Part shown: positions 13,413 to 38,347 of the stretch, one piece after another
Layout of the letters: every line of letters begins with the position of its first letter
How positions within the stretch are numbered: the first letter of the stretch is position 1
NCBI GenBank assembly: GCA_965212085.1
Contig: OZ243042.1
Span: 1,921,796-1,985,795 of the forward strand
Origin: Candidatus Poriferihabitaceae bacterium
GTDB lineage: Bacteria > Pseudomonadota > Gammaproteobacteria > Arenicellales > Poriferihabitantaceae
Direction: 5' to 3'
DNA: 64,000 nt
Position numbers and translations under genes: made by a program
Notes under the pieces: generated by a model
Seen by the model: the letters and a program-made list of their open reading frames with translations, nothing else
Told to the model about the DNA's origin: nothing
The model's database searches: none

Positions 13413-13737
13413 GCTGGATTCCCGAGTACGCAAGTGTCCGTAAGCCGCTTGCGCGGCAACGGACACTAACGCTCGGGAATGACGGCAGCGTTGTTGTTAC
13501 GCTCTCGGTGTTATGCCCGCAAAGTACAAATCTCCCTCGGTGTCATTCCCGAACGATAGAAAAATAGGGAGCGTTAGCGACCATATTTTTCATCGTATCG
13601 GGAATCCAGTTTTTTTGGTTCGGCGCCAGCCGGACTGTCGCGCACAGGGATGTGCGCGCGGCGCTGGAAACAGGGGTTTCCCCGCGCCGCACAGGGGGGC
13701 GTGGGGGGTCTCCCCCCCCACAATGCGCGTCACGCGC
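13413..13737. repeat. Mosaic repeat block: module C (13413-13487), module A (13541-13607), module B (13621-13737), all forward
   Basis: Module C is a nested hairpin, ggattcccgag..gtgtccgtaagccgcttgcgcggcaacggacac..ctcgggaatgacggc. The A+B part is near-identical to 7717-7915. Confidence 0.9.
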
Positions 13738-16744: not shown

Positions 16745-17400
16745 CCGGTTTCGTTGGATGGGTGTTTGACCGGGTTGTTCGTATCATCCCTGATCCTCAC
16801 CTTTCGGGCTCCGCGCGATTTTGCTCCCGACAAAATTGTCCCGCCCCCGCTCAAGCCGTGGGCTTCGACAAGCAGCGCAGGCACAGGTCGCGACCTGTCC
16901 CTGCTACCTGCAAATGCGGGCATGACACCGAGAACATGGCAACAACTCTGCCGTCATTCCCGAGCGTTAGTGTCCGTTGCCGCGTAGCGGCTTACGGACA
17001 CTTGGCGCTCTCGGGAATCCAGCGGCATACGGCCTACCGGCGGTATAACCTGGATTCCCGAATAGCGATGAAAAATATGGTCGCTACGCTCCCTATTTTT
17101 CTATCGTTCGGGAATGACGGCGAGGTGAGGCCGGAATCCAGCGTCCAATCGGGGACAGGTCGCAACCTGTCCCTACGCCGCAACCGCCGCCCTACGCCCC
17201 AAACCCCCGCCCTACGCCCGCACAAAGTTCCCGCCGTTAGTCAAACCCTTCCGGCGATAGCCGGACTGTCGCGCACAGGGATGTGCGCGCGGCGCTGGAA
17301 ACAGGAGTTTCCCCGCGCCGCAAAGGGGGGCGCGGGGGGCATCCCCCCGCAGATGCGCGTCACGCGCCCCGCGCCCCGCAAACGCGCGCCCCGCGCCCCG
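16745..17400. repeat. Mosaic repeat block: module F (inverted, ~16745-16855), hairpin D (16889-16908), module C (inverted, 16950-17023), module A (inverted, 17050-17125), hairpin D (17151-17174), module B (forward, 17252-17367)
   Basis: Each module matches copies elsewhere. F matches 48119-48195 (contains caattttgccgggagcaaaattg). D is the palindrome ggacaggtcgcgacctgtcc, also at 47991-48013. B plus its left flank 17221-17251 matches 42763-42912 inverted. Confidence 0.9.
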
Positions 17401-19698: not shown

Positions 19699-22296
19699 AT
19701 GCTTGAACAATACGAAAAACACGCCGCCGAACGGGCTGAACAGGGCATCGTTCCTTTGCCCCTGGACGCCGCGCAGACCGCGCAGTTGGTGGCGTTGTTG
19801 AAAGACCCGCCGGCCGGGAAGGAGGCGCAACTCGTTGAGCTCATCAGCGACCGCGTACCCGCCGGCGTTGATCAGGCGGCCTACGTCAAGGCGGCGTTTC
19901 TGGCCGCCGTGGTTCGCAAGGAAACCGCATCAAAGGTGCTCAGCCGCGAACGCGCGGTGGAATTGCTCGGCATGATGCACGGCGGCTACAACATCGAGCC
20001 GTTGATCGCGTGCCTTGACGACACGCCCGACAACGCGCCGCTGGCGGACGAAGCGGTGCGCGCGTTGTCGCGCACGCTGCTGATGTTCGATGCCTTCTAC
20101 GACGTCGCCGAGCGCGCCGAGGGCGGCAATCCGAACGCCCAAAAGGTGCTGCAATCCTGGGCCGACGCCGAGTGGTTCACCGATAAACCGGAAGTGCCGG
20201 AAAAAATTACGGTGACGGTGTTCAAGGTGCCCGGCGAGACCAATACTGACGACCTGTCGCCGGCCCCGGATGCGTGGTCGCGCCCGGACATTCCGCTGCA
20301 CGCGCTGGCGATGCTGAAAAATCCGCGTCCGGGGCTGGGCGAAAAGCCCCTTGAGACGTTGCGCGAGTTGAAGGAGAAGGGCTTTCCGGTGGCCTACGTC
20401 GGCGACGTGGTCGGCACCGGTTCGTCGCGAAAATCCGCGGCCAACTCGGTGCTCTGGCACACCGGCGAGGACGTGCCCGGCATCCCCAACAAACGCGCCG
20501 GGGGCTACTGCTTCGGCGGGCAGATCGCGCCGATCTTTTTCAACACCATGGAAGATTCCGGGGCGCTGCCCATCGAAATGGAAGTCGGCAAAATGGAAAT
20601 GGGCGACGTCATCGACGTCTATCCCCACGCCGGCAAGGTGTGCCGCCACGATAGCGATGAAGTTATCAGCGAGTTCCGCTTGAAGACCGGCGTGCTGCTC
20701 GACGAAGTCCGGGCCGGCGGGCGCATCAACCTGATCATCGGCCGCGGCCTCACCGCCCGTGCACGGGAAGCCCTGGGCCTCCCCGCCGATGAGATTTTTC
20801 ACAAACCGGCGCCGCCGGCAAAAAGCAGCAAGGGCTATACCCTGGCGCAAAAAATGGTCGGCAAAGCCTGCGGCGTGGCCGGCGTCCGCCCGGGGCAGTA
20901 CTGCGAACCGAAGATGACCACCGTCGGCTCCCAGGACACCACCGGCCCCATGACCCGAGACGAACTCAAGGACCTCGCCTGCCTCGGTTTCCAGGCGGAT
21001 CTGGTGATGCAGTCCTTCTGCCACACCTCGGCCTATCCCAAGCCGGTGGACATCGAAACCCAGCACAGCCTGCCGGATTTCATGATGGACCGTTCCGGCA
21101 TTTCCCTGCGCCCCGGCGACGGCATCATCCATTCGTGGATGAACCGCATGCTGCTGCCCGACACCGTCGGCACCGGCGGCGACTCCCATACCCGTTTCCC
21201 CCTCGGCATTTCCTTCCCGGCGGGTTCCGGGCTGGTGGCTTTTGCGGCGGCCACCGGGGTGATGCCGCTGGATATGCCGGAGTCCGTGCTGGTGCGCTTC
21301 AGCGGCGAGATACAGCCCGGCATCACGCTGCGCGACCTGGTGCACGCGCTCCCCTGGGCGGCCATCCGCAAGGGCCTGTTGACGGTGGAAAAGGCCGGCA
21401 AGAAAAACGTCTATTCCGGGCGCGTGCTGGAAATCGAAGGGCTACCCGACCTCAAGGTGGAACAGGCCTTTGAGTTCGCCGATGCGTCGGCGGAACGCTC
21501 GGCTTCCGGCTGCACCATAAAGCTCAACAAGGAGCCCATCGCCGAGTACATCACCTCCAACGTAGTCATGCTCAAGTGGATGATGAGCGAAGGCTACGGC
21601 GATGCGCGCACCATCGCCCGGCGCGTGGAAGCGATGCAGGCGTGGCTGGACGATCCGCAACTCATGGAAGCCGACGCCGACGCCGAATATTTTGAAGTCA
21701 TAGACATAGATCTCAACGCCATCACCGAACCGATCCTGTGCGCGCCCAACGACCCCGACGACGCGCGCCTGCTGTCGGAAGTCGCCGGCGACAAGGTGGA
21801 CGAAGTGTTCATCGGTTCGTGCATGACCAACATCGGCCACTTCCGCGCAACCAGCCGGCTCCTCGACAAGATGGGCAAGGTAATCCCCACGCGCATGTGG
21901 ATCGTGCCGCCCACCAAAATGGACCAGGCGCAACTCGTCGAAGAAGGCCACTACGCCATTTTCGCCAAAGCCGGCGCGCGCACCGAACCGCCGGGCTGCT
22001 CACTGTGCATGGGCAACCAGGCGCGGGTCGCCGACAACGCCACGGTGGTGTCCACCTCAACCCGAAACTTCCCCAACCGCCTCGGCAAAGGCGCCGACGT
22101 CTACCTCGCATCCTCGGAACTGTCGGCGGTCGCCGGCGTACTCGGACGCCTGCCCACCGTCGAGGAATACATGAACGAAGCCGGCCAACTCAACACCATG
22201 GCCGCCGACATCTACCGTTACCTCAACTTCAACGAAATCGAATCCTACAACACGGCTGCGAACTCGGTGGTGCCGGAGCAGGTGTTTGGGGCTTGA
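19699..22296 (+). CDS. acnB: Aconitate hydratase 2 / 2-methylisocitrate dehydratase
   Basis: 865 aa with an AcnB-type N-terminal domain ([24 protein letters not shown]). Fe-S ligand contexts [10 protein letters not shown] and [13 protein letters not shown]. Confidence 0.95.
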
Positions 22297-22427
22297 TATA
22301 CCTGAAATCGGTTTATATGAAATTTTCCTAGAGGCTTTTTGAACTTAATAATGGGGAGCATCAAGCAGTTTTGTGTCTGTTTGATTGCTTACTGATATCA
22401 CTTAACAGAAATTATGGGAAACAATAA

Positions 22428-24746
22428 ATGAAAGAAGTAAAACAGTTATTTACGGCGAAAGCATCGAGTTTTTATGACACAATGAAGGGCCATGGTGGCT
22501 CTGCCGGATATCGTATTCCAATCTATCAGAGAATGTATAGCTGGAGTAAGGAAAATATCGAACGTTTGATTGTTGATTGCTTAAATGGTTTTTATTATTT
22601 ATCACAGGAAAAGGATCGAGATTCTGGATCATTTACTTTTTTAGGAACTCTTATTTTAGTTCGAGAGAAAGACACGGAATCTAGTTTTAACGGGAGTTCT
22701 TTATCTGTTGTTGATGGACAACAAAGGTTGACGACCCTCGTACTTATTGCATGTGTCCTGATTGAGGAGATTGCGATTAAGGCAAATGAAATAATTCTGG
22801 AAGTTGATAATAAATACGCCAATTGGATGAAAGAGGAAAAAGATTTTCAATTGGGATGTCTTTACGAATGTGTCATGGGGACGCAATCTTCTCGCGCAAA
22901 AAATTTTCCTTATCCAAGGATTATACGGGATGGAGATAGTCGTGGTTTATCAGGTACGGATTCTGAGTATTATTCTATAATTTCAAGATTTCTGCAGAAT
23001 TTTTCAGAATATTACGAAAACTACTACAAAAATAATGAAAAGTGTGTTTTTGAATTTCCTTCCATAAGGGATAAGGAAAAGGAATATGAGCAGTTTAAAA
23101 AGAATCATGAAACTATAAAAGACAAAATACAGGAGATATCTGTTAGATATGACGGGGATGTTGAAGATCGAGAGTATGAGATTTTGCCGAGGAAAAATTT
23201 TGAAAAAAGTGGTATCAGGGATTTATTTGAACGGGTTAGTGTTTGTGGTGATGAGGGCTTGCAAGACAAAGCGATTTCAACTATATCTAAGGACAAAGCT
23301 TTTGAGCCTTTAGTGCGTCTTCTTCTTTTTGCAGCATACTTTACAAGGTATGTTGTGCTTACTTCGGTGGAAACGGATGATGAAAAAGCCGCGTTCGATA
23401 TATTTGATTCGTTGAATACGACGGGTGAACCGTTGACGGCACTAGAAACACTCAAGCCTCTTGTCATAAAATTTGAGGGTAAAAAAAGACGTGGGTACAA
23501 AGGGTCTGATTCAGAGATTTCTTTCTCAAAAATCAAGAGCAATTTAGATGACAAAGTCTCAGGTGATAAAACACGCCAAATAGAGACGAAAGATGCAATT
23601 GTGTCATTCGCACTCTATATGGAGGGTGCCAAGCTCCCTAGAGATTTGAGTAGGCAGAGAACTTATCTCAGGAGCAAATACGACAGGATCTCTGATGAAA
23701 GAAAACCACAATTTGTTGACGCAATAGCTGATATAACATTTTTTAGATATAACTATTGGAATGCAAAAGGTATTGAAAAGTTAGTAGAATTTAATTCAAC
23801 TAATCATCGGGATGAGATACAGCTGTGTATGCAATTGATTTCCGACATGAGAACGAGTTTAGCACTGCCTATTTTGACTCGTTATCATTCTAAAATTCAC
23901 GGAAATGGCGGTGAAAAAAACTTTTTCAACGCAGTAAAGGCATTGACAGGATTCCTCATTCTGCGAAGAGCGTATACTGGTAGTACAAATGGCATTGATG
24001 CAGTATTTCGATCCTTGATGGAAAAGCAACCGTCACACAAGGGTGACCCTTTGTCAGTTGGGTTAGACCATGAACACAAAATCTGGGATATTTTTAACTT
24101 TAAAGAGGAATTACGTAAGAAACTTGCTGAGTGTATGGGGAAAGTATCTCAAGAAAATTGGGTCGAAAAAGTTGTTGAAAATCCTCTTGCCCAACAATCC
24201 AAACCATTAGTAAAATTTCTTTTGTTTGCTGCTGCCCATCATTCAATATCTGACCCTAAAGAAGAAGGACTTTGGGTGCGTGATGGGGTTAAAATTGCCG
24301 CTGAGAATGAATATATCAACTATAGAAACTGGACAAACTCTAAATATGGAACAGTGGAGCATATAGCGCCTGATTCCCCTAAAAATGGGTGGGATAAAGA
24401 TATTTATACTCAATCTTTTAGAAGACATACTATAGGAAATTTGCTCCTCTTGCCTGAAAAGGAAAATAAAAGTCTCGGAAATGCTAGTTGGAAAAAGAAA
24501 CAGCTTTTTTATATGGCGGTATCAGAGAAGACAGTAGAGGAAGCAACTGCAAGGATAGCCGAATCTAAACATGAGGGTATCGAATTTTCGCAGAAAACCG
24601 AGAAACTAATACTAGGTGGTGATCGCTTGCAATTGCTAGACCCTATCCGTAATGTTGAGAGTTGGACTGCTGATTTTATACAGAAGCGCTCAACTAATAT
24701 TGCTAATTTAGCGTGGGATACGGTTAGTTCTTGGTTGTTGGATTAG
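22428..24746 (+). CDS. sspE: DUF262 + DUF1524 two-domain protein, SspE-like phosphorothioate-sensing NTPase/nickase effector
   Basis: 772 aa, very AT-rich. N-terminal DUF262 motifs IPIYQRMYSWSKENIERLIVD and VVDGQQRLTTL. C-terminal DUF1524/HNH-like motifs GTVEHIAPDSP and IGNLLLLPEKENKSLGNASWKKK. Adjacent to the modification genes. Confidence 0.8.
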   Translation: MKEVKQLFTAKASSFYDTMKGHGGSAGYRIPIYQRMYSWSKENIERLIVDCLNGFYYLSQEKDRDSGSFTFLGTLILVREKDTESSFNGSSLSVVDGQQRLTTLVLIACVLIEEIAIKANEIILEVDNKYANWMKEEKDFQLGCLYECVMGTQSSRAKNFPYPRIIRDGDSRGLSGTDSEYYSIISRFLQNFSEYYENYYKNNEKCVFEFPSIRDKEKEYEQFKKNHETIKDKIQEISVRYDGDVEDREYEILPRKNFEKSGIRDLFERVSVCGDEGLQDKAISTISKDKAFEPLVRLLLFAAYFTRYVVLTSVETDDEKAAFDIFDSLNTTGEPLTALETLKPLVIKFEGKKRRGYKGSDSEISFSKIKSNLDDKVSGDKTRQIETKDAIVSFALYMEGAKLPRDLSRQRTYLRSKYDRISDERKPQFVDAIADITFFRYNYWNAKGIEKLVEFNSTNHRDEIQLCMQLISDMRTSLALPILTRYHSKIHGNGGEKNFFNAVKALTGFLILRRAYTGSTNGIDAVFRSLMEKQPSHKGDPLSVGLDHEHKIWDIFNFKEELRKKLAECMGKVSQENWVEKVVENPLAQQSKPLVKFLLFAAAHHSISDPKEEGLWVRDGVKIAAENEYINYRNWTNSKYGTVEHIAPDSPKNGWDKDIYTQSFRRHTIGNLLLLPEKENKSLGNASWKKKQLFYMAVSEKTVEEATARIAESKHEGIEFSQKTEKLILGGDRLQLLDPIRNVESWTADFIQKRSTNIANLAWDTVSSWLLD

Positions 24747-24785
24747 TCAAAAGCCTTAGGGTATGAATCACTACTAGCGCCGAGT

Positions 24786-25622
24786 TTACTTATGACACGC
24801 CAAACAAACTTTCGCTTTCCCATACAAGTCATCAATATCCAAGGGTTCGTTGTCGGATCGTAAGGGATTGGGTTGTACTTTTGAGCGAAGTCGAGCAAGG
24901 CGTTTCTCGTGTTCCTGCTTGATTTGTTTGATTCGCTCCGGCCGGGATAGTTCTTCCAATGACTCGCCCTGACTCCAGGTAAACGGAGAGCCGTGTTCAA
25001 CGGCGTTTTTCTCATATGCTTTTGCTTCTTCAAAGGCATCGGGGTGCTCGTGCATAAGTCGTACCCATTCGATTTTCTGCTGAAAGAAACAGAAAGTGCA
25101 TCCGCTACGTGTCCGCCAAGAATAATATTTCGGCAATCCAAGACCGGCGGCTTCAAGAATTTCCAGAACAGCGGGTTTGTCGATACCTTCTTCCTTAAAA
25201 GGGAGTTTTACGATAAGGTTATCGCGCTTTGACAAATAGCCTTCTCGATATTCCTCATCACTGCGTATCGCCACATAACTGTAAATCGTCATACCATCAT
25301 CAAGCATTGGTCGCAGCCAGTGTTCAAAGGGGCGGAGTTTAAGTTGACGGGTGCACCAGCGGCTCTGTGGGGAAGGGAGGAAGCTATTGAACTGTTTGAG
25401 CCAGAAATCGAAATCCCGGTCCGGGTTCAACCGGAGTATTGGTTTCCCTAGAAAGCCCTCAAGACGCACTAGGTATTCGTAGACTTCCGGGAGTTCTTTC
25501 CCTGTGTCGGTGAAGAAGTATTCAATTTCCGTCTCTGGGTGATGCTGGCGCATATAAACGGCGAGCGCCGCGCTGTCGCGCCCGCCAGAAAGACCAAGAA
25601 CATGTTTTTCTTTATCCGGCAT
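24786..25622 (-). CDS. sspD: PP-loop PAPS-reductase/DndC-like ATP pyrophosphatase, SspD-like
   Basis: Start moved to the ATG at 25622 (MPDKEKHVLGLSGGRDSAALAVYM). The tracked N-terminal extension lies inside sspC. PP-loop SGGRDS. Cys pairs RSGCTFCFF and KVCLACHK. The ATG overlaps the sspC stop by 11 nt (ATGCCGGATAA). Confidence 0.8.
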   Translation of the reverse strand: MPDKEKHVLGLSGGRDSAALAVYMRQHHPETEIEYFFTDTGKELPEVYEYLVRLEGFLGKPILRLNPDRDFDFWLKQFNSFLPSPQSRWCTRQLKLRPFEHWLRPMLDDGMTIYSYVAIRSDEEYREGYLSKRDNLIVKLPFKEEGIDKPAVLEILEAAGLGLPKYYSWRTRSGCTFCFFQQKIEWVRLMHEHPDAFEEAKAYEKNAVEHGSPFTWSQGESLEELSRPERIKQIKQEHEKRLARLRSKVQPNPLRSDNEPLDIDDLYGKAKVCLACHK

Positions 25623-28600
25623 CAGATTTTTTTCTCCGTTTGGCCGGTTTTTTCTTGTCGCCATCTTCCATATAGCGTGCGCTGATTTTTGCCAGTGAAG
25701 CCAGGATGATGTTGCGTTGTTTTGTGTTGGCGTTTTGGATGGCGGTTGAAACAACACCGACAAGATAATTTACTGCCTTTTGGTCAGAATCCGCCACATC
25801 AAAAACTTCCAGCAGTGGAACAGGGCGACCGTCCATTCCAACGACAACGGCCATTGCTTGGCGTTTGTCCGGTCGGCCTTTTATCCGTGCGAAGGTTTCG
25901 GCGCGTAGAAATTGTTGAGCCATCTCCGCAACGTTGATGCCGGCGCGGTCCACGTCCGGATCTACCCAATTCCGCGGGGGTTTGTCGGTTACAAGACTTG
26001 CGATTGCCTCAAAGGCGCTATCGGTGCCGTCAAATTTAGACAACCGGCCAATAAATGCCTCCAATCGGAAGTCGCCGGTGAGTTCTTTGACGTTCTCCGC
26101 TCTCTCGCGCAGTTCTGTGAGGGATTGCGGAGACAGGTTTGGCACCTCGAGCTCGGTCAACATGGTATCCCTGATACGGTGCAACATGAATGGATAGGCG
26201 CCTATAAGTTCTTTCAGGCCCTCGTGAAAGTCCTCAACAAACTTTCGCATATCTTTATCATTGGATAAATCACGGTCTTTCCCAATTACTGAGGGAATGT
26301 CATCAAAGAGAAACTTATTGGGATCGCGCGCACGCTTGAAAAGGTCGCGGATCTTTATGGCGTTTTTAGAAAGTTGCATGGTTCGCTTGGTCCACTGCGA
26401 CAGTTCTTCGTATATTGCTACAAGATCGCGCGCAATATCTATCGGCTCTATGTGCGCTGATTTGTTTCCCTTATCAAGAGCGCTAACAACCACCGACATT
26501 TCCGAAAGAATGCGTCCGGACACGCTCGAAAGATTCATCCACCGCAACTGTATGAATGACGGATCCTTGGATAGATAATCAATATCCACGTCATCAAAGT
26601 GTGCGCGAAAAATACCATCACGATAGATGGCGATTTTGTTTCGTTGAGTCAGGATGAACGATACGGCGAGTATCGGTATCAGGCCGCTTTTTATGCCAAA
26701 GGGTTGCTTCTGCCAAAGCTCGTCGTAAATTTCCTTAATAGGAACCGTTCGCTTGGCGTGTTTTTTGATGTAGTTGACAGTTTCCTGCCACAGGGGTGCT
26801 AGGCGACTGTGATCTTCATCGTTTTTCGGCGCAACAATGCGCCAAGTTCCCTCAACCTGTTTGTACAGTTTTGTTGCTTCCAGCATCGAGGCGAACAGGC
26901 CACCCTCGGCGGGAAAGCCCTCAATGCCAAGGCGCGGCTCACCTTCATTGGCGACCATGCGCCGAAGCAATATTTTTTGTGCTCCCGTGGCGCTACTTGA
27001 CGGCCTTTGTCGGTTCAAAAGTTCGTTGTGCAACCGCGGGCATTTGTCGAACCGGCTGTCGGCCAGTTCAGAGGCCAGAATATTGAGATCAGCGTGGCGA
27101 TACCTTTTCGGTGAGTGGTTTTTTTGGAACCATAGTGCCCCATCCATCGCCGCGCGCAACTCCAGTCCAATACGGGTTTGCAAGGTTGCGATGCGTTCGG
27201 TCACTTCGCGTCGTGCTACCGCGTCTCCGGCCAGCTGTGGGTGATCATTGTGGATATTATCCAACGCGACCAACTCGCGGGCGAAAGTGAAAATGGACCG
27301 AGAGTGTTCTGAAGTCCCGACGACAATATCCCACTCATCGCTGTGCCGCGCCGCCTTTCGGCACTGTTGCTCGATGCGTTCCTTGCTTTCGCTCTCAGTG
27401 GGGACGGCAAGCAGGAATTGACCGACCACCCCGTTTTCAGGATGGTATTTGGACACAATTTCTTCGATATCCGCGACGTGTGCAAAGTTGACATCAAACC
27501 AGCGCATCGTCCCCGTTTCGTGATAGTGGCGTTTGGCAAGTATGGGTTGCAGTTCCGCAAGCATCTTGAGAGTAGTGAAGTCAATTTGACCCATATCTTC
27601 AAGTGCGCCGCTAATAGCTTGGTCAATATCAAAATCGCTACCTGCAAAAATGGCATATGCGTCAAGGAATTTTTTGAATATGATATGAGACCACTTGCCT
27701 AGTTGGTTGAGCGACTTTTTTAAAGCACCGTCCGACACATCAGGAAAGCAGGTTTGCAACAGTTCAAGACTGGCAACAAGGCCGGAACGATCTTTGCACA
27801 GGTCAACGATAGCGATCGTTTTCAGCAGACGGATGCATAGCGCATCCCCGCCCGATGTTTCACATCGCTCCAATGCATCGGCAGCCAACGCCCAGCGATG
27901 TCCGTCCGAAGAAGCAAGAATGGATGGCTCCAGGTTGGCGCGTAGGTAATCCCACAGTCGGTCCGGCTCATAGACCTCTCCTTTTTTTGCGCTTTGCAGG
28001 AAATCCTGAAAGCCATACGGTTCCGAGGAATTGAGAAAACTGAATATGCTGCGTTGATTCTGACCAAAGCGGCGACGTGAAATGGGGCCAAGAAGACAGG
28101 CGGTAACCGGATGCAGAGGCCAACAGGATTCCAGTGTCAGGGCAAATTCTTTGACGTTTTTGGACCGTTGATGTTGAGCAAGTGCCGCAGTCGTTCGTGC
28201 AAGTTCACCGGGGCTTTTTAGTTGTCGGTCGTTCTCAACGGCACGGGAGATGGTGTCTATTTGTTCCTCTCCGGTTGTGCTGATGGAAAGATCAACAAAG
28301 CGCCCTTGAATCTTTGCCCATTCCCTGCGTATTTCGTGGGAAATGCGGGATGCGTATTCTTCAAATGCTTGGTGCAAAATGCCAATCAGGATGAGGCGTC
28401 CATTACTGCGCGAAGCCACCTCGGCGAGTTGTTGGAAAACGTAGATGTCGGTATTTTTCTGAACAGCCGATTCAAGAAACTTGCCCATCTCGTCAACAAA
28501 TAAAACGATCCCGCCGTGGGTCCTTGGACGTTGTGCGGCAAGCTCCTGCAAGGTGCTGATGAGGTATCTTTCGCTCCATCCTCCGCGTGGTCTGCGTTCC

Positions 28601-29004
28601 ACTAGCCCGGCTTCTTTTATAGATTCTCCGATGACATCAATGGGGTTCTCAAGACGTCCGACTACGGGAATAATTCTCCAGCCCTTTGTGCCGGTTGGCA
28701 TCGCTTTCCGTATTTGATTGCTGAGTTTGTGCCCGAAAATTTTAGCGGCTTGCCTCCGTTGGTCGGTGCTGCCACCGAGGGCTACGCTAAACGCTACAGC
28801 AAGGCTGGATTTGCCACTGCCGTACGGGCCTGTCCATGTAAAAGCTCCCTGTCCCGACTTGGAAAGGTGTTCCGCCATCGTTTGCAGGGCGTTGGCGTAG
28901 GACTGAGGGCATACGAACCCATCTAGTGCTTTGGCATCGCCGAGGTCAGTATCAATGCGAACCGACCGTTGAAAGCGGCGAACAATTTGTACGCGATTAA
29001 TCAC
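25612..29004 (-). CDS. sspC: Large P-loop ATPase, SspC-like
   Basis: 1130 aa. GTG start overlaps the sspB stop (GTGA). Walker A GPYGSGKSS, Walker B-like IVLFVDEMGKF. No other domains recognisable by eye. Confidence 0.7.
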   Translation of the reverse strand: MINRVQIVRRFQRSVRIDTDLGDAKALDGFVCPQSYANALQTMAEHLSKSGQGAFTWTGPYGSGKSSLAVAFSVALGGSTDQRRQAAKIFGHKLSNQIRKAMPTGTKGWRIIPVVGRLENPIDVIGESIKEAGLVERRPRGGWSERYLISTLQELAAQRPRTHGGIVLFVDEMGKFLESAVQKNTDIYVFQQLAEVASRSNGRLILIGILHQAFEEYASRISHEIRREWAKIQGRFVDLSISTTGEEQIDTISRAVENDRQLKSPGELARTTAALAQHQRSKNVKEFALTLESCWPLHPVTACLLGPISRRRFGQNQRSIFSFLNSSEPYGFQDFLQSAKKGEVYEPDRLWDYLRANLEPSILASSDGHRWALAADALERCETSGGDALCIRLLKTIAIVDLCKDRSGLVASLELLQTCFPDVSDGALKKSLNQLGKWSHIIFKKFLDAYAIFAGSDFDIDQAISGALEDMGQIDFTTLKMLAELQPILAKRHYHETGTMRWFDVNFAHVADIEEIVSKYHPENGVVGQFLLAVPTESESKERIEQQCRKAARHSDEWDIVVGTSEHSRSIFTFARELVALDNIHNDHPQLAGDAVARREVTERIATLQTRIGLELRAAMDGALWFQKNHSPKRYRHADLNILASELADSRFDKCPRLHNELLNRQRPSSSATGAQKILLRRMVANEGEPRLGIEGFPAEGGLFASMLEATKLYKQVEGTWRIVAPKNDEDHSRLAPLWQETVNYIKKHAKRTVPIKEIYDELWQKQPFGIKSGLIPILAVSFILTQRNKIAIYRDGIFRAHFDDVDIDYLSKDPSFIQLRWMNLSSVSGRILSEMSVVVSALDKGNKSAHIEPIDIARDLVAIYEELSQWTKRTMQLSKNAIKIRDLFKRARDPNKFLFDDIPSVIGKDRDLSNDKDMRKFVEDFHEGLKELIGAYPFMLHRIRDTMLTELEVPNLSPQSLTELRERAENVKELTGDFRLEAFIGRLSKFDGTDSAFEAIASLVTDKPPRNWVDPDVDRAGINVAEMAQQFLRAETFARIKGRPDKRQAMAVVVGMDGRPVPLLEVFDVADSDQKAVNYLVGVVSTAIQNANTKQRNIILASLAKISARYMEDGDKKKPAKRRKKSDAG

Positions 29005-29963
29005 GCCGCGGCCGACCGTTTGATTTTTGGATAGTCTGTATCAATACAATCAAGGATAGTTTCAGGATTAAGATCGGCGTTGCGCATCACTTGCTTGAGG
29101 TTGGCGGTCTCCGACCATTGGAACGCATCGCTCGTTACGGTACCAAGAGCGGCGAGCCGGTCAATCACGTCGTTGTCATTGAGCAGGAAAGCGCGGCCCG
29201 GGCTACACGGCTCGTGCACTAGTGATTCAAATGATAAGGTGGTTGCATTCGGTGAAAAGCGGCGCCAGAAGTCCAGGAGCGCATAAACGAACACGCCGTT
29301 CCCCAAGGACGGCTTCGGGCCGCGCACAAAACGGAAGCCGTCGTGTTTGCCGATTGCCTTGATTAGTCCCAGCTCGGCCAGCGGAGATTCCAGAACGTCA
29401 TCATGCCCGCCTCTTGATGATTGCTGTGGAACATAGGTGCGTATAAAGCACGCAACATCGTTCTTTATTGTGGTTCCGGAGGCACGTCGCCATGCACGTT
29501 CCTTTGCCAATCTTTCCAGTCCCCTGATTAAATGTTCCCGGTCAAAGGCAATGTCGGGGTAGTGATTGAAAGCCCAGAACCATGTTGTTTTCTTATCGGC
29601 GTAAGCGGCCAACTTCCAATGAATAAGCCACAGTGTCGCCGGATGCTCCATATAGGGATCAAGACCTTTGGCTCCGAATAACTTTTGACCGAAACGTGTT
29701 GTGTGTATGATACTTTCCACTTTATCCTCGGCGAGGATATCAACCGATTCCGCCCAATGACGCATGGAAGAAACCATGTTCTTACCCACACCGAAACGGG
29801 CGATCGAATCTTCATTAAGGAATACGGATTTACTTTCCTGCCCGCCATTGGTTTTTTCAATGGCGTCAAAAGCTTTCTTCAGCCATCCATAGCGTAACGT
29901 AAACGTCTCGTGCCCTGATAGTCGGGGGCAGTAATCGCCTTGAAAAAGTGGTCCGCGGGACAT
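29001..29963 (-). CDS. sspB: DUF4007-like protein, SspB-like (nickase component)
   Basis: 320 aa. N-terminus FQGDYCPRLSGHETFTLRYGWLKKAF matches my recollection of the DUF4007 start. First gene of the sspB-C-D overlapping operon. Confidence 0.7.
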   Translation of the reverse strand: MSRGPLFQGDYCPRLSGHETFTLRYGWLKKAFDAIEKTNGGQESKSVFLNEDSIARFGVGKNMVSSMRHWAESVDILAEDKVESIIHTTRFGQKLFGAKGLDPYMEHPATLWLIHWKLAAYADKKTTWFWAFNHYPDIAFDREHLIRGLERLAKERAWRRASGTTIKNDVACFIRTYVPQQSSRGGHDDVLESPLAELGLIKAIGKHDGFRFVRGPKPSLGNGVFVYALLDFWRRFSPNATTLSFESLVHEPCSPGRAFLLNDNDVIDRLAALGTVTSDAFQWSETANLKQVMRNADLNPETILDCIDTDYPKIKRSAAA

Positions 29964-30115
29964 TTTGAAATCGATTGGTTGAGTTTCTTCGTTGGCGCTC
30001 GTATCATACAGGACGTGGTGACGGATGGCAATTCTCTGGTGATTCGCTCCAGATTAAAACGGCCTCGCTATTTCAGTCCCTAATCACAGAAATAACTGTA
30101 ACCTGTTCAAAAGTA

Positions 30116-31315
30116 ATGAAAATAGGAAAAATCCTCTACTTCGACCACCAAGCCACCACACCCGTGGATTCGAGGATTTTTGTCGAAATGTCCCCTTATT
30201 TCGTGGAGAACCCCGGAAATCCGCATTCCGAGGATCACCACCTCGGGTGGCAGGCGGCCCAAGCCGTCAAGGAGGCCGCCGGTCGTGTGGCGCGCTTTAT
30301 CGGGGCGGACGATGATGAAATCGTGTTCACTTCCGGCGCGACCGAATCAAACAATCTTGCCCTGCTTGGTTTCGGTCGGCGGGCGGCGAAGGGGAATCGC
30401 CGACGAATTCTTGTCAGTGAGATAGAGCACAAATGTGTGTTGGCCGCGAGTCATGCATTGCAGGAGCAACTTGGTTATAAGGTCGAGTATGTGCCCGTGG
30501 ATAATGAAGGACGGGTTGTTTTGTCGGCGCTTGAGCAAGCGTTGGATGACGGTGTGCTAATGGTATCCATTATGGCTGTAAACAATGAGGTTGGCACAAT
30601 TCAGGATATTGAACAAATCTCGAAACTAATCACAGGCCACGGAGCGATTTTTCACTGCGATGCAGCACAAGCCCCCTGCGCGGTGGATTTAAGTTCTTTT
30701 GCTGATTTTGTTGATCTTCTTAGTCTGTCTGCGCACAAAATGTATGGCCCCAAAGGGGTAGGCGCCCTTTTCATAAGACGAGAATTACAAGATCAAATTG
30801 AGCCTATTATTTACGGCGGGGGGCAGCAACGTAATTTACGATCAGGGACAACGCCTGTTCCCCTTTGCGTTGGCATGGGGGCGTCAGCAAATCTTCTTGG
30901 CGCTAGTGTGGCGAAACAGGAGCGGCTGTTGGTCTCCCGTCGTAGAGATCAGTTTGTAAAGGGGTTGTTGAATTTACAATGGCCCATCGACATTAATGGA
31001 CCAAAAAATGAATATCGTCATCCTGGAAACGCGAATATACGATTCATTGATTTTTCAGCGTACGATATTCTGAGTGCTCTCCAACCCGGACTGTCAGCGT
31101 CAACGGGCGCTGCCTGCACATCTGGCATTCAGGAACCTTCGCATGTTTTAAAAGCCATTGGCCTCTCAACCGTGGAGTCTGACGCATCAATCCGGTTCAG
31201 TATAGGTCGGGACACCAGCGATCCGGATATAGAGGAAGCAGTGGAGCTTGTGGGGCAAGCGCTTTCGAAGTTGTCGGTTACTAATTTGGTGAAATCTACA
31301 CAGGCAAAACGCTAA
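30116..31315 (+). CDS. sspA: Cysteine desulfurase (NifS/IscS/DndA class), SspA-like
   Basis: Start moved from the TTG at 29975 to the ATG at 30116 (MKIGKILYFDHQATTP). PLP lysine context LSLSAHKMYGPKGVGALF. Catalytic Cys loop STGAACTSG. Divergent from sspBCD. Confidence 0.8.
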   Translation: MKIGKILYFDHQATTPVDSRIFVEMSPYFVENPGNPHSEDHHLGWQAAQAVKEAAGRVARFIGADDDEIVFTSGATESNNLALLGFGRRAAKGNRRRILVSEIEHKCVLAASHALQEQLGYKVEYVPVDNEGRVVLSALEQALDDGVLMVSIMAVNNEVGTIQDIEQISKLITGHGAIFHCDAAQAPCAVDLSSFADFVDLLSLSAHKMYGPKGVGALFIRRELQDQIEPIIYGGGQQRNLRSGTTPVPLCVGMGASANLLGASVAKQERLLVSRRRDQFVKGLLNLQWPIDINGPKNEYRHPGNANIRFIDFSAYDILSALQPGLSASTGAACTSGIQEPSHVLKAIGLSTVESDASIRFSIGRDTSDPDIEEAVELVGQALSKLSVTNLVKSTQAKR

Positions 31316-31468
31316 GTGCCGACTTTTTATTGTGTTTGCGGTATTCCGGCGAAAAATCAAGGGAGGTGTATTCGATTGTTCATCTCAAAACACGTGTAGA
31401 AACTACCCCATTCACTTATAATAAGCGCTCAAACTTTTTACCGGCCTTTAACTTCCCCGAGGAATCCA

Positions 31469-32446
31469 ATGAACCCTCCCGTTCGAATCGCGGTCACCGG
31501 CGCCGCCGGCAATATCTCATATGCGCTGCTGTTTCGTATCGCCGCCGGCGATATGCTGGGCCGGGGTCAGCCCGTGATCTTGCAGTTGCTGGAAATCCCG
31601 CCGGCCATGGACGCCCTGCGCGGCGTGGTCATGGAACTGCAAGACTGCGCGTTCCCGTTGCTGGCGGGCATCATCGCGTCGGATGACGCCAACGCGGTGT
31701 TCGCCGATGCCGATTACGCGCTACTTGTGGGCTCCAAACCGCGCGGCCCGGGAATGGAGCGCGGCGAGTTGCTGACCGACAACGGCAAGATATTTTCCGC
31801 CCAGGGCAAGGCCCTCAACGACCACGCCGCGCGTTCGGTCAAGGTGCTGGTGGTGGGCAACCCGGCCAACACCAACGCCTTCATCGCCGCCGCCAACGCC
31901 CCGGACCTCGACCGCGCGCAGTTCACCGCCATGACGCGCCTCGACCACAACCGCGCCAAGGCCCGCCTCGCGCAAAAACTCGGCATCCACCACGACCACG
32001 TCCGCAAAATGACCATCTGGGGCAACCACTCCGCCACCCAGTACCCGGACGTCTCCCACGCCCTGGCCAAAGGGGAGGCGGCCATGCCAATGGTCGAACA
32101 AGCGTGGCTTGAGGAAGACTTCATTCCGGCGGTTCAGCAGCGCGGCGCGGCCATCATCAAAGCGCGGGGCGCATCCAGCGCGGCTTCGGCGGCGGCGGCG
32201 GCCATTGACCACGTGCGCGACTGGGCCCTCGGCAGCGCGCCGGACGACTGGGTGAGCATGGCGGTTTCCGGCGATGGCAGTTACGGCGTTGAAGAGGGGT
32301 TGATTTATTCTTTCCCGGTCACTTGTAGCGATGGCCGCTATCAGATCGTTCCGGATCTCGACATCAGCGACTTCAGCCGCGAAAAAATGGACGCAACCGA
32401 GCAGGAGTTGAAAGAGGAACGGGACGCGGTCCGGGATCTCGTGTAA
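31469..32446 (+). CDS. mdh: Malate dehydrogenase
   Basis: 325 aa. NAD site [18 protein letters not shown], active-site region [14 protein letters not shown]. Confidence 0.95.
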
Positions 32447-32465
32447 CCATTCGCGGAGAATTGCA

Positions 32466-32951
32466 ATGCCTTCATTTGACATCGTATCCGAAGTGGACTG
32501 GCAGGAAGTGAAAAACGCCGTCAACCAGGCCAACCGCGAAGTCAGCACGCGCTTTGATTTCAAGGGTAGCGACGCGCGGGTCGAGGAAAAAGATCCGCTC
32601 CTGATCATCCACGCCGACGACGACTACAAGGCCGGGCAAGTGGCGGACGTGCTGCAACTGAAACTGGCGAAACGCTCGGTGGAGGTCGGTTGCCTGGAAA
32701 AAGGCGAGGTGAAGGTAAGCCCCACCGGCAAGGCGGTTCAGGAAATCAAGGTACGGCAGGGCGTTGACACCGAACTCGCCAAAAAAATCGTCAAACTGAT
32801 CAAGGGTCAAAAAATGAAAGTGCAGGCGGCCATCCAGGGCGGGCAAGTGCGGATCAGCGGCAAAAAACGCGACGACCTGCAGCAGGTGATGGCGTTCATT
32901 GACGAGCAAAAACTCGGGTTGCCGTTGCAGTATGTGAACCTTCGCGACTGA
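32466..32951 (+). CDS. yajQ: YajQ-family nucleotide-binding protein (UPF0234)
   Basis: 161 aa. MPSFDIVSEVDWQEVKNAVNQANREVSTRFDFKG is the canonical YajQ N-terminus. Confidence 0.85.
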   Translation: MPSFDIVSEVDWQEVKNAVNQANREVSTRFDFKGSDARVEEKDPLLIIHADDDYKAGQVADVLQLKLAKRSVEVGCLEKGEVKVSPTGKAVQEIKVRQGVDTELAKKIVKLIKGQKMKVQAAIQGGQVRISGKKRDDLQQVMAFIDEQKLGLPLQYVNLRD

Positions 32952-32961
32952 GCCGACTGAT

Positions 32962-33288
32962 TCAGCCGCCGGTGTTTGGCTCAAGCAACGCGCTTTCAAT
33001 ATCGCTGAGCGCATCATCGGTGAAGCGCAATGTCGCCGATTGTTGTTCGACTTTTCTGGTCCGGCCTTTTTTGAGGTAGAAGTAATAGTCCCAGCGGTCG
33101 GCGTGGAACGGGTCGGTGATGAGCGGGTAGCCGATCACCTTGCCGACTTCCTCTTTGCTCATGCCGATTTTCAGCCTGGCGAGCATTTCCGTGGTGATTT
33201 CGTTGCCCTGCTGGATGTCGATTTTGTAGACGATGCAGCCCGGTGGCAGTAGTAGCGAGAGGAGGACGGGCAGGATGCGTAGTTTCAT
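32962..33288 (-). CDS. bamE: Outer membrane protein assembly factor BamE (SmpA/OmlA lipoprotein)
   Basis: Start moved to MKLRILPVLLSLLLPPGC (lipobox). IDIQQGNEIT...IGMSKEEV motif. Confidence 0.8.
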   Translation of the reverse strand: MKLRILPVLLSLLLPPGCIVYKIDIQQGNEITTEMLARLKIGMSKEEVGKVIGYPLITDPFHADRWDYYFYLKKGRTRKVEQQSATLRFTDDALSDIESALLEPNTGG

Positions 33289-33322
33289 TGTTGAGTGCCG
33301 GTTGTCGGTTGAGGATTGAGGT

Positions 33323-33820
33323 TTATGAAAGATTTTTGAGGACCGCGATTTCATCACAGTTGCGAAACTTGGGGCAGTTGATGCACACGCCCCACACTTT
33401 TTCTGGCAACTCGTTCATTTCCACGGTCTCGAATCCCAGGTTGTGAAAAAAACCGGTCTCGTAGGTCAGCGCCATCAACCGGCTGAGGCCCATCTCCAGC
33501 GCCTCCGCTTCGATGCGGCCCACCAGTTGCCGGCCCAGGCCGAGACCGCCGTGCTCCGGCGCCACCGCCAGGCTTCTGACTTCGCCCAGTTCCCCGGTGA
33601 ATATCTGCAGGGCGCCGCAGGCGATCACGCGCGCGCGGTTTTCGACCACCAGAAACTCGCGCATATTATTATACAGGTCGCTCTCCGAGCGCGGCAAAAG
33701 GACTTCGCGGTCGCTGAAATGTTTCAGCAGCGCGTGGATGCCGGCGACGTCCGCCAGCCGTGCGCGGCGAATCCGGTGTTGGCGAATCCGGCGGCGCGTT
33801 TTTTGTATGACGGTGTTCAT
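33323..33820 (-). CDS. GNAT N-acetyltransferase (short ArgA-like)
   Basis: 165 aa. Acetyl-CoA site RSLAVAPEHGGLGLGRQLV. Overlaps the recN stop by 4 nt. Confidence 0.75.
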   Translation of the reverse strand: MNTVIQKTRRRIRQHRIRRARLADVAGIHALLKHFSDREVLLPRSESDLYNNMREFLVVENRARVIACGALQIFTGELGEVRSLAVAPEHGGLGLGRQLVGRIEAEALEMGLSRLMALTYETGFFHNLGFETVEMNELPEKVWGVCINCPKFRNCDEIAVLKNLS

Positions 33821-35532
33821 GCCGACTGCAGCAGCCGCTCGGCGTGGGCCAGGGACTGGGGGGTCAGTTCGGCGCCGGCGGTCATGCGGGCGATCTCCTC
33901 GATGCGCTGCTGGTGATCCAATGGCCGCACGCTGACGCTGGCCTGGCGGCCGGTTTGCTTGGCTACCGACCAGTGATGATGCCCCTTGGCGGCCACCTGG
34001 GACAGGTGGGTGATGCAGATTACCTGGCGGTTGCCGCCCAGCTGGCGCAGTTTTTCACCGACCACCTCGGCCACGCGGCCGCCGATGCCCACGTCCACTT
34101 CGTCGAATATCAGCGTCGAGGCCGGCGCATCGGCGGCCATGACCACGTTGATGGCCAGGGAAATCCGCGACAGTTCGCCGCCCGACGCCACCTTGCCCAG
34201 CGGCTGCAGGGGCAGGCCGGGGTTGGCGCTGACCACGAACTCCACGCTCTCGTTGCCGCGCCGGGAAATGTGCGCCCCGCCGTTCCCATCATTCCCATCA
34301 TTCCCATCAGCAACGCTCAGGCGGATTTCAAACGCCCCGCCGGCCATGCCCAGTTCCTGCATCAGGGCGGTGACCCCGGCCTCAAGCCGCTTCGCCGCTT
34401 TGGCGCGGTTTTTGCCGATGGCGGTTGCCGAACGGTCGTAACCGGTTTTGTGTTCGTGCCACTGCGCGTCGAGCCGTTGCAGTTCGGCTTCGGGGTCTTT
34501 GATCCCGGCGCGTTCGGCGCGCAGTTGTTCGAGGCGGGACGCGAGCAGGCCGGGCAGCACCCGGTGTTTGCGGGACAGGTCGTGATAGAGCGAAAAGCGG
34601 GCTTCGATTTCGGCGATTTCCGCCGGGTTGAGCGCGCCTTCGGCGGACATCCCTTGCAGTTGGGCTGCGGACTCGCCGAGGTTGACGTTGGCTTCTTCGA
34701 GCATGGCGATGACCCTGGCGAGCCGCGCGTCGTATTCCACCAGGCGTTGCAGCTGCCGGCAGCACTCCACGAGCGCGGCACTGAGGCCGGGGCCGGGGGC
34801 GGAACCGCCTTCGCTACCGCCGTCTTCGCTCAGGCGTGCGGCCACGGCGCGCGCGCCCGCCGCCAGATCCTGGGCGTGGTGCATGCGCTTTTGCTGTTGC
34901 TCCAGTTGCGGCCATTCGTCGGGGCGCGGGTCGAGGGCTTCCAGTTCGCCGATCTGGAATTGCAGCAGGTCGGCCCGTTCCCGGGCCAGGTCGCCGTGAT
35001 TTTTGAGTTGTTCAATGCGCTCGCGCACCGCTTTTAGTTTTTCGTAGTCGCCCCCCAGTTGCGCCAGCAGTTCGGCGTTGCCGGCGGCGTTGTCGAGCAG
35101 CGACAGCTGGCCTTTTTTGCCGAGCAGGGAATGGTGTTCGTTCTGGCCGTGAATGTCCGCCAGTTCGCGGCCGAGGTCGCGCAGCATTGATGCGTTGACC
35201 GAGCGGCCGTTGATCCAGGCGCGGCTTGGTTTGTCGCGGCGCATCACCCGCCGCAGGATGCATTCGTTTTGGTTGTCGAGGCCGTGGTCAATTAGCCAGC
35301 GCATCGCCGGATGGGAATCGCCGAGGACGAAGCCGCCCTGGATTTCCGCTTCGGCCTGGGGTTGGCGGATCATCGAGTTTTCGGCGCGGTCGCCGAGCAG
35401 CACGCCCACCGCCCCGACGATCAGCGACTTGCCCGAACCGGTCTCCCCGGTGACCGTGGTGAACGAGTCGCCGAACTCCAGCGCGATGTGTTCGGCGATG
35501 GCGAGTTGGCGGATTTCCAGCCAGTCGATCAT
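33817..35532 (-). CDS. recN: DNA repair protein RecN
   Basis: 571 aa. Walker A GETGSGKS, signature ASGGELSRISLAINV, Walker B TLIFDEVDVGIGG. In-frame 9-bp x3 repeat (34282-34308) encodes GNDGNDGNG. Confidence 0.95.
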   Translation of the reverse strand: MIDWLEIRQLAIAEHIALEFGDSFTTVTGETGSGKSLIVGAVGVLLGDRAENSMIRQPQAEAEIQGGFVLGDSHPAMRWLIDHGLDNQNECILRRVMRRDKPSRAWINGRSVNASMLRDLGRELADIHGQNEHHSLLGKKGQLSLLDNAAGNAELLAQLGGDYEKLKAVRERIEQLKNHGDLARERADLLQFQIGELEALDPRPDEWPQLEQQQKRMHHAQDLAAGARAVAARLSEDGGSEGGSAPGPGLSAALVECCRQLQRLVEYDARLARVIAMLEEANVNLGESAAQLQGMSAEGALNPAEIAEIEARFSLYHDLSRKHRVLPGLLASRLEQLRAERAGIKDPEAELQRLDAQWHEHKTGYDRSATAIGKNRAKAAKRLEAGVTALMQELGMAGGAFEIRLSVADGNDGNDGNGGAHISRRGNESVEFVVSANPGLPLQPLGKVASGGELSRISLAINVVMAADAPASTLIFDEVDVGIGGRVAEVVGEKLRQLGGNRQVICITHLSQVAAKGHHHWSVAKQTGRQASVSVRPLDHQQRIEEIARMTAGAELTPQSLAHAERLLQSA

Positions 35533-36392
35533 TCGTTCCAGCCAAGTTTGGAACGCAGGGTCTCGAAGTGGTTGTGGCCGTTGATGCGGATCATGGACAG
35601 CGACTCGGCGGCCTTGCTCACGGTAACGGTCTCGCCGCCGTGCAGTTTGCAGGCGATCACTCCGTCGAGGGCGAGGTTGGCGTGGGTCTCGGCGAAAACC
35701 ATGGAGGTAATTTCCACGCGCGCGTTCTGGTCGAGCACGATGGGGCGGTTGCTCAAGGTGTGCGGGCAGATCGGCGAGAGGCTGAACACCGGCAGGGTCG
35801 GGTAGATGATCGGCCCGCCGGACGACAGCGAGTACGCGGTGGAGCCGGTGGGCGTGGCGAGGATGATGCCGTCGCTGCGGATGTGGCTGAGAAACTGGCC
35901 GTTGACGTGGATTTCAAACTCGATCAGGCGCCCGGTGTTGCCCTTGGATATGGCGGTGTCGTTGACCGAGTTGCCGTGGTGGACGGTTTGGCCGTCCACG
36001 GATACGGTGGTGTCGAGCAGGGTTCTTTGTTCGACGTGGTAGTCGCCGCGCAAAATCGCGGCGAGGCTGGGTTCGAGGTTTTGCAGGGCGATGTCGGCGA
36101 GGAAACCGAGCCGACCGAGGTTGACGCCGATGGCGGGTACGTTGTGCGCGGCGAGATTGCGCGCCGCGCTCAACATGGTGCCGTCGCCGCCCACCACGAT
36201 GGCGAGGTCAATGAGTTCGCCGAGGGGCTGGTCGCGGTCGTCAATGCGCTCGCCGTCAATGTCCGCCGAGGTGGTGCCGCCGAGCAGGACCGCGAGGTCG
36301 TGCTTCTCCAGCAGTTCCCGGATCTCGGCGACGGTGTCGCCGACGCTACGGTCGTTGAATTTGCCGAACAGTCCGACTTTGTTGATTTTCAC
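35529..36392 (-). CDS. nadK: NAD kinase
   Basis: 287 aa. VVGGDGTMLSAARNLA motif. Adjacent to recN as in many proteobacteria. Confidence 0.9.
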   Translation of the reverse strand: MKINKVGLFGKFNDRSVGDTVAEIRELLEKHDLAVLLGGTTSADIDGERIDDRDQPLGELIDLAIVVGGDGTMLSAARNLAAHNVPAIGVNLGRLGFLADIALQNLEPSLAAILRGDYHVEQRTLLDTTVSVDGQTVHHGNSVNDTAISKGNTGRLIEFEIHVNGQFLSHIRSDGIILATPTGSTAYSLSSGGPIIYPTLPVFSLSPICPHTLSNRPIVLDQNARVEITSMVFAETHANLALDGVIACKLHGGETVTVSKAAESLSMIRINGHNHFETLRSKLGWNE

Positions 36393-36621
36393 AATAGTTA
36401 CAGGGGGTTAGGGCGTAATTGTTAGCCGTCAGCCAGCCGGGAATTGGCACCGGGCGGGCGCACAAAAACAAGCATAGTATAGGGGTAATGCGGCAAAATA
36501 CAAACTTGACAGGGCGCCCGCCCCCTTGCTAGCGTAAATAGCGTAGAAGGCGCGCCCGCCGGATGTTTCCGATGGTTTCCGGTGCGCGGAATATCCCGCA
36601 CAAACGTCCCGAAATTTTTTT

Positions 36622-37698: not shown

Positions 37699-37731
37699 GT
37701 AGCCCGGCCACCCGCCACCGCCCGCACCACC

Positions 37732-38316: not shown

Positions 38317-38347
38317 CCAGTAGTGTAGCCGGTTTATTTCGGCACGA

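Follow-up and report, generated by a model that had tools for sequence, protein, structure and literature searches.

A probable SspABCD-SspE phosphorothioate system of composite history between acnB and mdh of an uncultured gammaproteobacterium

The DNA analysed here (the window) is a 64,000-nucleotide stretch of contig OZ243042.1 from Candidatus Poriferihabitaceae bacterium. Its acnB-mdh interval is occupied by five genes which very probably make up a complete SspABCD-SspE phosphorothioate (PT) system, a 9.1 kb composite cargo whose sspE was gained or exchanged separately from the core formed by the other four. Taken as longest open reading frames (ORFs), the five lie at 22428-24746 (+), 24786-25763 (-), 25612-29004 (-), 29001-29963 (-) and 29975-31315 (+). 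A preliminary description, made from the letters of this DNA, had listed the same ORFs, and all the motifs quoted in it were found in their translations. From about 0.64-0.66 in acnB and mdh, the G+C content (GC) falls to 0.36-0.55 over 22.3-31.5 kb; at third codon positions (GC3) it is 0.82-0.83 in the two flanking genes, 0.50-0.55 in sspD, sspC, sspB and sspA, and 0.325 in sspE. Composition inside the interval is thus two-tiered, with an overall GC of 0.376 (37.6%) in sspE and 0.49-0.51 in the four core genes. The abrupt compositional switch that had been reported is real as a drop of GC and GC3 relative to acnB and mdh, but the interval is not a single AT-rich block and its right end lies at about 31405, not at 31468.

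The left end of the island together with the sspE upstream spacer (22297..22427, plus strand, GC 0.321) probably carries the promoter and ribosome-binding site of sspE; homology to three relatives (L085, L086 and L088; relatives are given here as L numbers) ends at the acnB stop, 22296/22297. The sspE gene (22428..24746, plus strand), a strain-specific effector cassette, codes for a 772-aa protein in which a predicted PT-sensing GTPase (DUF262/GmrSD_N) is fused to an HNH-type nickase (DUF1524/GmrSD_C). It is followed by a convergent spacer of 39 nt between the sspE and sspD stops (24747..24785), where the terminator scan found no consensus terminator. This spacer holds the breakpoint between strain-specific cassette and shared core, homology to L088 (95.9%) starting from 24787. 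Next come sspD (24786..25622, minus strand), a PP-loop ATP pyrophosphatase of phosphoadenosine phosphosulfate (PAPS)-reductase/DndC-like type with 278 aa counted from M48 of the long ORF, sspC (25612..29004, minus strand), a large AAA+/P-loop ATPase of 1130 aa, and sspB (29001..29963, minus strand), the 320-aa DUF4007 protein that is the nickase of Ssp modification modules. All three share the minus strand and overlap, sspB with sspC by 4 nt and sspC with sspD by about 11 nt, as expected of a coupled, compact, co-directional sspBCD operon. A divergent control region of 152 nt (29964..30115), with the same divergent layout in L088 and L089, separates sspB from sspA (30116..31315, plus strand), an IscS/NifS-type cysteine desulfurase of 399 aa dependent on pyridoxal phosphate (PLP). 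The right end of the island (31316..31405) has 41% GC, and homology to L084 resumes at 31406.

Two of these gene starts differ from those of the longest ORFs. The sspA gene most likely starts at 30116 rather than 29975, and sspD most likely at 25622 (278 aa), with 25664 and 25763 as alternatives. Both were trimmed because the PADLOC SspA model starts at residue 55 of the long sspA ORF, position 1 of the SspD model falls on residue 53 of the 325-aa sspD ORF, and the orthologues have been called at 399 or 395 aa (sspA; 399 aa in L088 and close to this in L089) and at 292 or 278 aa (sspD). The longest-ORF version of sspD would overlap sspC by 152 nt.

We compared the five proteins with profile models of the families that the preliminary description had named, and each gave strong, full-length matches to exactly the predicted family. 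SspE matches the PADLOC SspE model at 2.7e-266 (884 bits), its residues 4-770 covering model positions 2-765 of 766, while the other DUF262 families of PADLOC score about 100 bits or less; its two domains are recognised by Pfam as GmrSD_N (1.6e-29) and GmrSD_C (2.8e-13), that is DUF262 and DUF1524. SspD is matched by the PADLOC SspD model (7e-136) and, above cutoff, by Pfam PAPS_reduct (1.3e-5). SspC scores 1337 bits (E=0) over residues 3-1056 and with 1130 aa has the size expected of the family (about 1,050-1,150 aa), and SspB is identified by Pfam DUF4007 (1.5e-89) and, over its full length, by PADLOC SspB (2.6e-106). SspA matches PADLOC SspA at 3.7e-126 and Pfam Aminotran_5 at 2.3e-75; in NCBIfam, which has no Ssp-specific models, it shows generic IscS/NifS/DndA similarity only. 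No sspFGH genes lie adjacent to sspBCD, the island consisting of five genes, and a low-GC patch at 47-51 kb was likewise negative; within the window, the search for defence genes covered the island and this patch. Judged by its model scores, the region reads as a typical Ssp system of known kind and not as a new PT variant, so the earlier caveat of a divergent or novel PT-like system can be dropped. Every defining feature of SspABCD-SspE that can be checked in sequence is present, and those of DndABCDE, BREX (bacteriophage exclusion) type 4 and SspABCD-SspFGH are not.

Catalytic and sensing residues point the same way. The best solved structures for SspE, both aligned end to end, are the E. 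coli protein EcSspE (20yv, 4.6e-99, 336 bits) and the Streptomyces protein StSspE (6jiv, 3e-87, 297 bits); it also matches 20yw, which is E. coli SspE with alanine in place of the DGQQR arginine, and 7drs, a further Streptomyces SspE entry. Functional residues were mapped from StSspE (PMC9646914) and from EcSspE, where Y63, R133 and N724 are essential (PMC13251355). The PT-sensing residues Y30/Q31/R32 of StSspE (Y63 of EcSspE) correspond to Y33/Q34/R35 of the window protein, and the GTPase motif DGQQR, containing R133 of EcSspE, to D96GQQR100. The DNA-binding residues R404/R408 of StSspE are found as R411/R415, the HNH-type triad H639/N667/N676 of StSspE (N724 of EcSspE) as H645/N671/N680, and the inter-domain linker TTGQPLT as TTGEPLT. 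The three essential EcSspE residues are thus represented by Y33, R100 and N680, and SspE retains all residues whose essential role has been demonstrated in the two solved homologues from E. coli and Streptomyces. In the short form of SspD, SGGRDS is located at residue 12 and there are five cysteines (90, 175, 178, 273 and 276), including two CxxC pairs. SspC has a Walker A motif GPYGSGKS at residue 59 and a Walker B motif VLFVDE at 167, and SspA has its PLP lysine K208 in SAHK and its catalytic cysteine C334 in GAACTSG. Among solved structures, SspB matches SspB 6juf (9.6e-37), and SspA matches IscS/NFS1 entries (about 1e-87) and SspA 6m4j (5e-59). The PDB search gave no match for SspC and only PptA, weakly (5e-6), for SspD.

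From the SspABCD-SspE systems described in PMC7188994, PMC8092258, PMC9646914 and PMC13251355, the following mode of action can be proposed. SspA would take sulfur from cysteine and pass it to SspD. SspD (PP-loop ATP pyrophosphatase), SspC (AAA+ ATPase) and SspB (DUF4007 nickase) would then install single-strand PT on host DNA, SspB nicking the DNA and choosing the sites together with SspC. In the characterised Ssp systems the PT motif is 5'-CpsCA-3' (PMC7188994, PMC8092258, PMC9646914, PMC13251355). The N-terminal DUF262 domain of SspE would sense PT in host DNA, which would stimulate GTP hydrolysis; this in turn would license the C-terminal HNH-type domain to nick incoming, unmarked DNA, so that phage replication would be blocked. 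As to origin, the core had reached the acnB-mdh site before the window strain and a sister strain separated, the convergent sspE cassette (22297-24786) being gained or exchanged separately.

Next, we examined the insertion site in related genomes. In the species-level genome collection, mdh matches reach at most 77% identity, and in none of these distant species does acnB or any ssp gene lie as near as 10 kb to mdh; much closer relatives were drawn from a large protein database. A synteny breakpoint at the island, read from the distant genomes, was abandoned, since the closer metagenomic relatives have acnB adjoining mdh. In L085 and L086 (mdh 87%), lnt-bioY-acnB-mdh-yajQ are contiguous with an acnB-mdh gap of about 75 nt, and their DNA aligns with the window up to 22297 and then again from 31446. 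This arrangement is the empty site, and it bears out the claim that the island is inserted between acnB and mdh. L084 is much closer (mdh 98%, flanks 95.7% identical). It is without ssp genes, aligns with the window up to 22280 and from 31406, and has in its 2.3 kb acnB-mdh gap (L084 4324-6590) a DLH-family (dienelactone hydrolase) gene of about 50% GC and repetitive extragenic palindrome (REP)-like repeats. The 63 nt preceding the mdh start are common to L084, and a TATAAT box in them is found also in the more distant L087; these 63 nt are therefore host sequence, foreign DNA ends at about 31405, and the island extends from 22297 to about 31405. Outside the system stand two host genes: on the left acnB (19699..22296, plus strand; TIGR00117, 1486 bits, above cutoff), collinear with L084, L085, L086 and L088, and on the right mdh, taken together with the 63 nt that precede it (31406..32446, plus strand; NF003916, 533 bits, above cutoff).

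Other relatives have different genes at the same place. The stretch just before mdh has undergone repeated rearrangement in this clade: L087 and L090 carry dapF-DUF484-xerC plus a zeta-toxin pair there, and L091 carries an inverted lnt-bioY-acnB block with SLT/LysM and small helix-turn-helix (HTH_3) genes. The acnB-mdh site is a cargo hotspot at which breakpoints recur, and it is free of mobility genes. No integrase or transposase was detected among the island proteins in Pfam and PADLOC profile searches, no tRNA gene within the window and no convincing flanking direct repeat at the island, as the preliminary description had also noted; convincing inverted repeats and, in the junction alignments, a target-site duplication were not found either. 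A small peculiarity was seen at the left junction: the last six codons of acnB (22279-22296) read EQVFGA in the window and EQLFGT in L084, L085 and L086, and between L084 and the window they are more diverged in DNA than the remaining gene. The left recombination junction may sit just within the acnB 3' end.

The history of the island can be traced through L088, a sister strain (ENA ERZ25878695, 289 kb contig). Its SspC (P0241) is 97% identical to that of the window, compared with 81% for SspC of L089 (P0242); the best non-self SspE in a set of 5.8 billion proteins is 55% identical. The gene order in L088 is mdh, sspA, sspB, sspC, sspD, a 641-aa GHKL-type ATPase (opposite strand), a 710-aa phospholipase D (PLD) plus superfamily 2 (SF2) helicase protein, a 705-aa ABC-type ATPase, a 151-aa ORF and acnB; sspE is absent from its acnB-mdh site. 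Identity between L088 and window DNA is 95.9% in 24787-39033 and 97.6% in 20727-22296; the sequences between these stretches are unrelated (2,490 nt in the window, 7,605 nt in L088), with one breakpoint at the stop codon of acnB and the other at that of sspD. The L088 cassette (L088 14239-21698) matches PbeA (2.8e-196) and PbeC (1.3e-47; DndD-like at 1e-31). In PbeA an HKD nuclease is joined to an SF2 helicase, and PbeC is a CxC ABC ATPase (PMC10853773). The 151-aa ORF belongs to no family.

Divergence within the shared part supports a stable core beside an exchanged cassette. Synonymous differences per synonymous site (pS) between the window and L088 are 0.111 in sspD, 0.095 in sspC, 0.090 in sspB and 0.091 in sspA, as against 0.090 in acnB. 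Core pS equals acnB pS; the modification core had therefore settled at this site by the time the two strains diverged. The ratio of nonsynonymous to synonymous differences (pN/pS) is 0.04 in sspD, 0.17 in sspC, 0.24 in sspB and 0.18 in sspA, with no indel in any of these genes; purifying selection keeps the sspD-C-B/sspA core. Unique to the window strain, by contrast, is the sspE cassette of 2.5 kb (22297-24786). Evidently, the effector cassette was exchanged after the strain split, in at least one lineage. That sspE is the exchangeable part is indicated also by L089, because similarity to it collapses just inside sspE. The island, described before as one unit, consists of two cassettes with different histories. 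Since mobility genes, tRNA and target-site duplication are absent, it was likely acquired by homologous or illegitimate recombination at the hotspot, the core first and sspE later.

Several points weigh against the assignment of a complete, coupled defence system. It is the family membership of its proteins that credits this locus with PT modification of a certain motif and strandedness and with phage resistance, the recombination route is read from absences only, and a functional match between sspE and the core is assumed, given their separate acquisition. The last doubt is eased by published work in which SspE and SspBCD of different species proved interchangeable (PMC8092258). Mutation of K40 in StSspE uncouples the GTPase from PT (PMC9646914, PMC13251355); this lysine, the one difference in the mapping of functional residues, aligns with N43 of the window protein, which has a lysine, K41, two residues before, and coupling of GTPase and PT sensing could therefore differ in detail. 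Promoter-like and terminator counts are not above those of shuffled sequences, so that the highest-scoring sigma-70-like sequence of the island (10/12, minus strand, 30031-30003, facing sspB) and a 9/12 match on the plus strand (29979-30007, facing sspA) are weak positional hints at most.

By one rival explanation, sspABCD would be an orphan PT-modification module with an epigenetic or redox role, and the DUF262-DUF1524 gene an independent GmrSD-like type IV modification-dependent restriction enzyme uncoupled from PT. Composition and history of sspE are indeed unlike those of the core, its Pfam domains are named GmrSD_N and GmrSD_C, no lysine aligns with K40 of StSspE, and 83.9% of sspBCD clusters have neither sspE nor sspFGH (PMC8092258). 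Against this stand the end-to-end match to the SspE model, far above the scores of other DUF262 families, retention of the linker as well as of the Tyr/Gln/Arg patch for PT sensing, recurrence of the convergent sspE-sspD layout in L089 at another chromosomal site, and the functional pairs of heterologous SspE and SspBCD already mentioned. An uncoupled pair is thus very unlikely. Alternatively, the cluster might be a decaying, non-functional relic of horizontal transfer: its composition is not ameliorated and the close strain L084 is entirely without it. We consider this highly improbable, for the five ORFs are full length relative to the models with motifs intact, and core pN/pS of 0.04-0.24 against L088 goes with zero indels.

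A divergent Dnd-type or BREX-type-4-like PT system in place of Ssp is extremely improbable. Some cross-matches do exist: SspA fits the DndA model nearly as well (1e-122), SspD weakly matches DndC (3e-5; the one further DndC match is at 2.8e-4) and BrxP (1.5e-10), and SspC matches one BrxC model at 1.4e-109. For each protein, however, the Ssp models score far higher (7e-136 for SspD, 1337 bits for SspC), and NCBIfam BrxC reaches 33.9 bits on the island against a cutoff of 400 bits. In PADLOC no island protein matches DndB, DndD or DndE, and PglZ, BrxL and other BREX core genes are missing from the five island ORFs, while DUF4007/SspB, which replaces DndE in Ssp systems (PMC10853773), is present at 1.5e-89. 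With core genes missing and scores much lower, the Dnd and BREX type 4 assignments were rejected; the earlier statement that the locus is not a classical DndABCDE system, made on account of the lack of DndD and DndE, agrees with this result.

Comparison with L088 invites a wider idea, in which a conserved SspABCD core would serve as fixed marking platform and restriction cassettes (SspE, or PbeA/PbeC-type genes with a GHKL ATPase) would be exchanged between near-identical strains. We regard it as possible, though doubtful. Coupling of the L088 Pbe-like cassette to Ssp is not established, because Pbe systems occur also independently of PT modules (PMC10853773). Pbe has been linked to Dnd-type modules, and in the literature searched PbeABCD and SspBCD appear together in only two papers, there in passing. 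Should the L088 cassette indeed read the single-strand Ssp PT mark, it would be a pairing for which we found no description, and one concerning the sister locus more than the window.

Elsewhere in the window, a low-GC patch (47000-51400, GC 0.39-0.56) was considered as a source of SspFGH or another PT partner and rejected, having no Ssp, Dnd or Pbe matches. Its genes code for an antitoxin-like protein with a SocA/Panacea domain (47283-47762, 1.4e-12), with an 88-aa ORF directly behind, for a DUF4189 protein (48443-48850) and for an ankyrin-repeat protein (49710-50534); the ORFs at 48923-49642 and 50449-51342 could be assigned to no family. The patch may be an islet of its own, of toxin-antitoxin or accessory nature. 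Palindromic hairpins of about 65 nt, resembling REPs or miniature inverted-repeat transposable elements (MITEs), with termini CATTCCCGA...TCGGGAATCC and at least two subfamilies, occur at 7719-7785, 13414-13609, 16905-17125, 42913-43023 and 47864-48398; none lies inside the Ssp island, and several copies are present in the acnB-mdh gap of L084. Hairpin folding is predicted at -25 to -32 kcal/mol. Identity of the copies stays at 89-97% even against genomes such as L087, whose coding DNA is only about 80% identical. A 6S/SsrS RNA gene (8157-8343, plus strand) is the sole Rfam match in the window (RF00013, 56.5 bits against a gathering score of 46.4 bits).

For annotation, the gain is a typical SspABCD-SspE locus whose gene starts and island ends are now corrected, in a high-GC gammaproteobacterium not yet in culture. 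The system itself is ordinary, and pipelines of the PADLOC type would annotate it automatically; the swap context is a useful, unsurprising case of defence-island modularity. Three strains with flanks about 96% identical carry, at one site, Ssp with SspE, Ssp with a Pbe-like cassette, or an unrelated hydrolase, and in more distant relatives that site is empty. Such a near-isogenic set can be used to study the exchange of effector cassettes beside a stable modification module and the use of Ssp marks by effectors other than SspE.

Finally, the locus can be set against known systems. With the double-strand PT system DndABCDE-DndFGH it shares a cysteine desulfurase and a PAPS-reductase-like PP-loop enzyme that sulfurate the DNA backbone, but it is without DndB, DndD, DndE and DndFGH; in Ssp systems, SspB and SspC stand in for DndE and DndD (PMC10853773). 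With the characterised SspABCD-SspE systems, of Vibrio cyclitrophicus FF75, E. coli 3234/A and Streptomyces yokosukanensis, it has in common the five protein families with full-length matches, the PT-sensing tyrosine, DGQQR arginine and HNH asparagine of SspE, and an sspBCD operon next to which a cysteine desulfurase gene lies, the published layout being an sspBCD operon of three genes with sspA adjacent or elsewhere (PMC8092258). IscS can also take the place of SspA. Unlike the hosts of those systems, the window host is an uncultured, high-GC gammaproteobacterium, and similarity of its SspE to the solved proteins is only moderate.

Among relatives, L081 has an sspE co-directional with sspBCD, whereas that of the window is convergent with sspD; the L081 sspE has the lowest GC among its four ssp genes. 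Directly after it, an 808-aa ORF (L081 12425-14851, GC 0.347) with no Pfam or PADLOC match may be an uncharacterised accessory gene. L089 (ENA ERZ25070185, 78.5 kb contig) shares the divergent sspA, sspB-C-D and convergent sspE, and its DNA is 78.9% identical over window 24637-31266, which includes the last approximately 110 nt of sspE, beyond which identity becomes patchy at about 69%. It differs in its chromosomal site, in an SspE that is 49% identical, and in an extra helicase/HATPase_c_3/PLD trio beside sspE. This trio, an SF2 helicase, a HATPase_c_3 protein (GHKL/MORC-like, with a weak MzaB match) and a PLD nuclease, stands next to sspE in L089 (16925-21354) and in L082 (3758-8878), and its occurrence in two unrelated contigs suggests a further defence module travelling with sspE. 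L088, lastly, has the acnB-mdh site and the sspA/sspBCD core in common with the window (SspC 97%, DNA about 96%), but a 7.6 kb Pbe-like cassette replaces sspE. That sspBCD pairs with varied partners in a patchy, horizontally shuffled manner was known at the phylogenetic level (PMC8092258); new here are a strain-level, nucleotide-resolved example of such a swap at one hotspot and the juxtaposition of Ssp and Pbe-like genes in L088.

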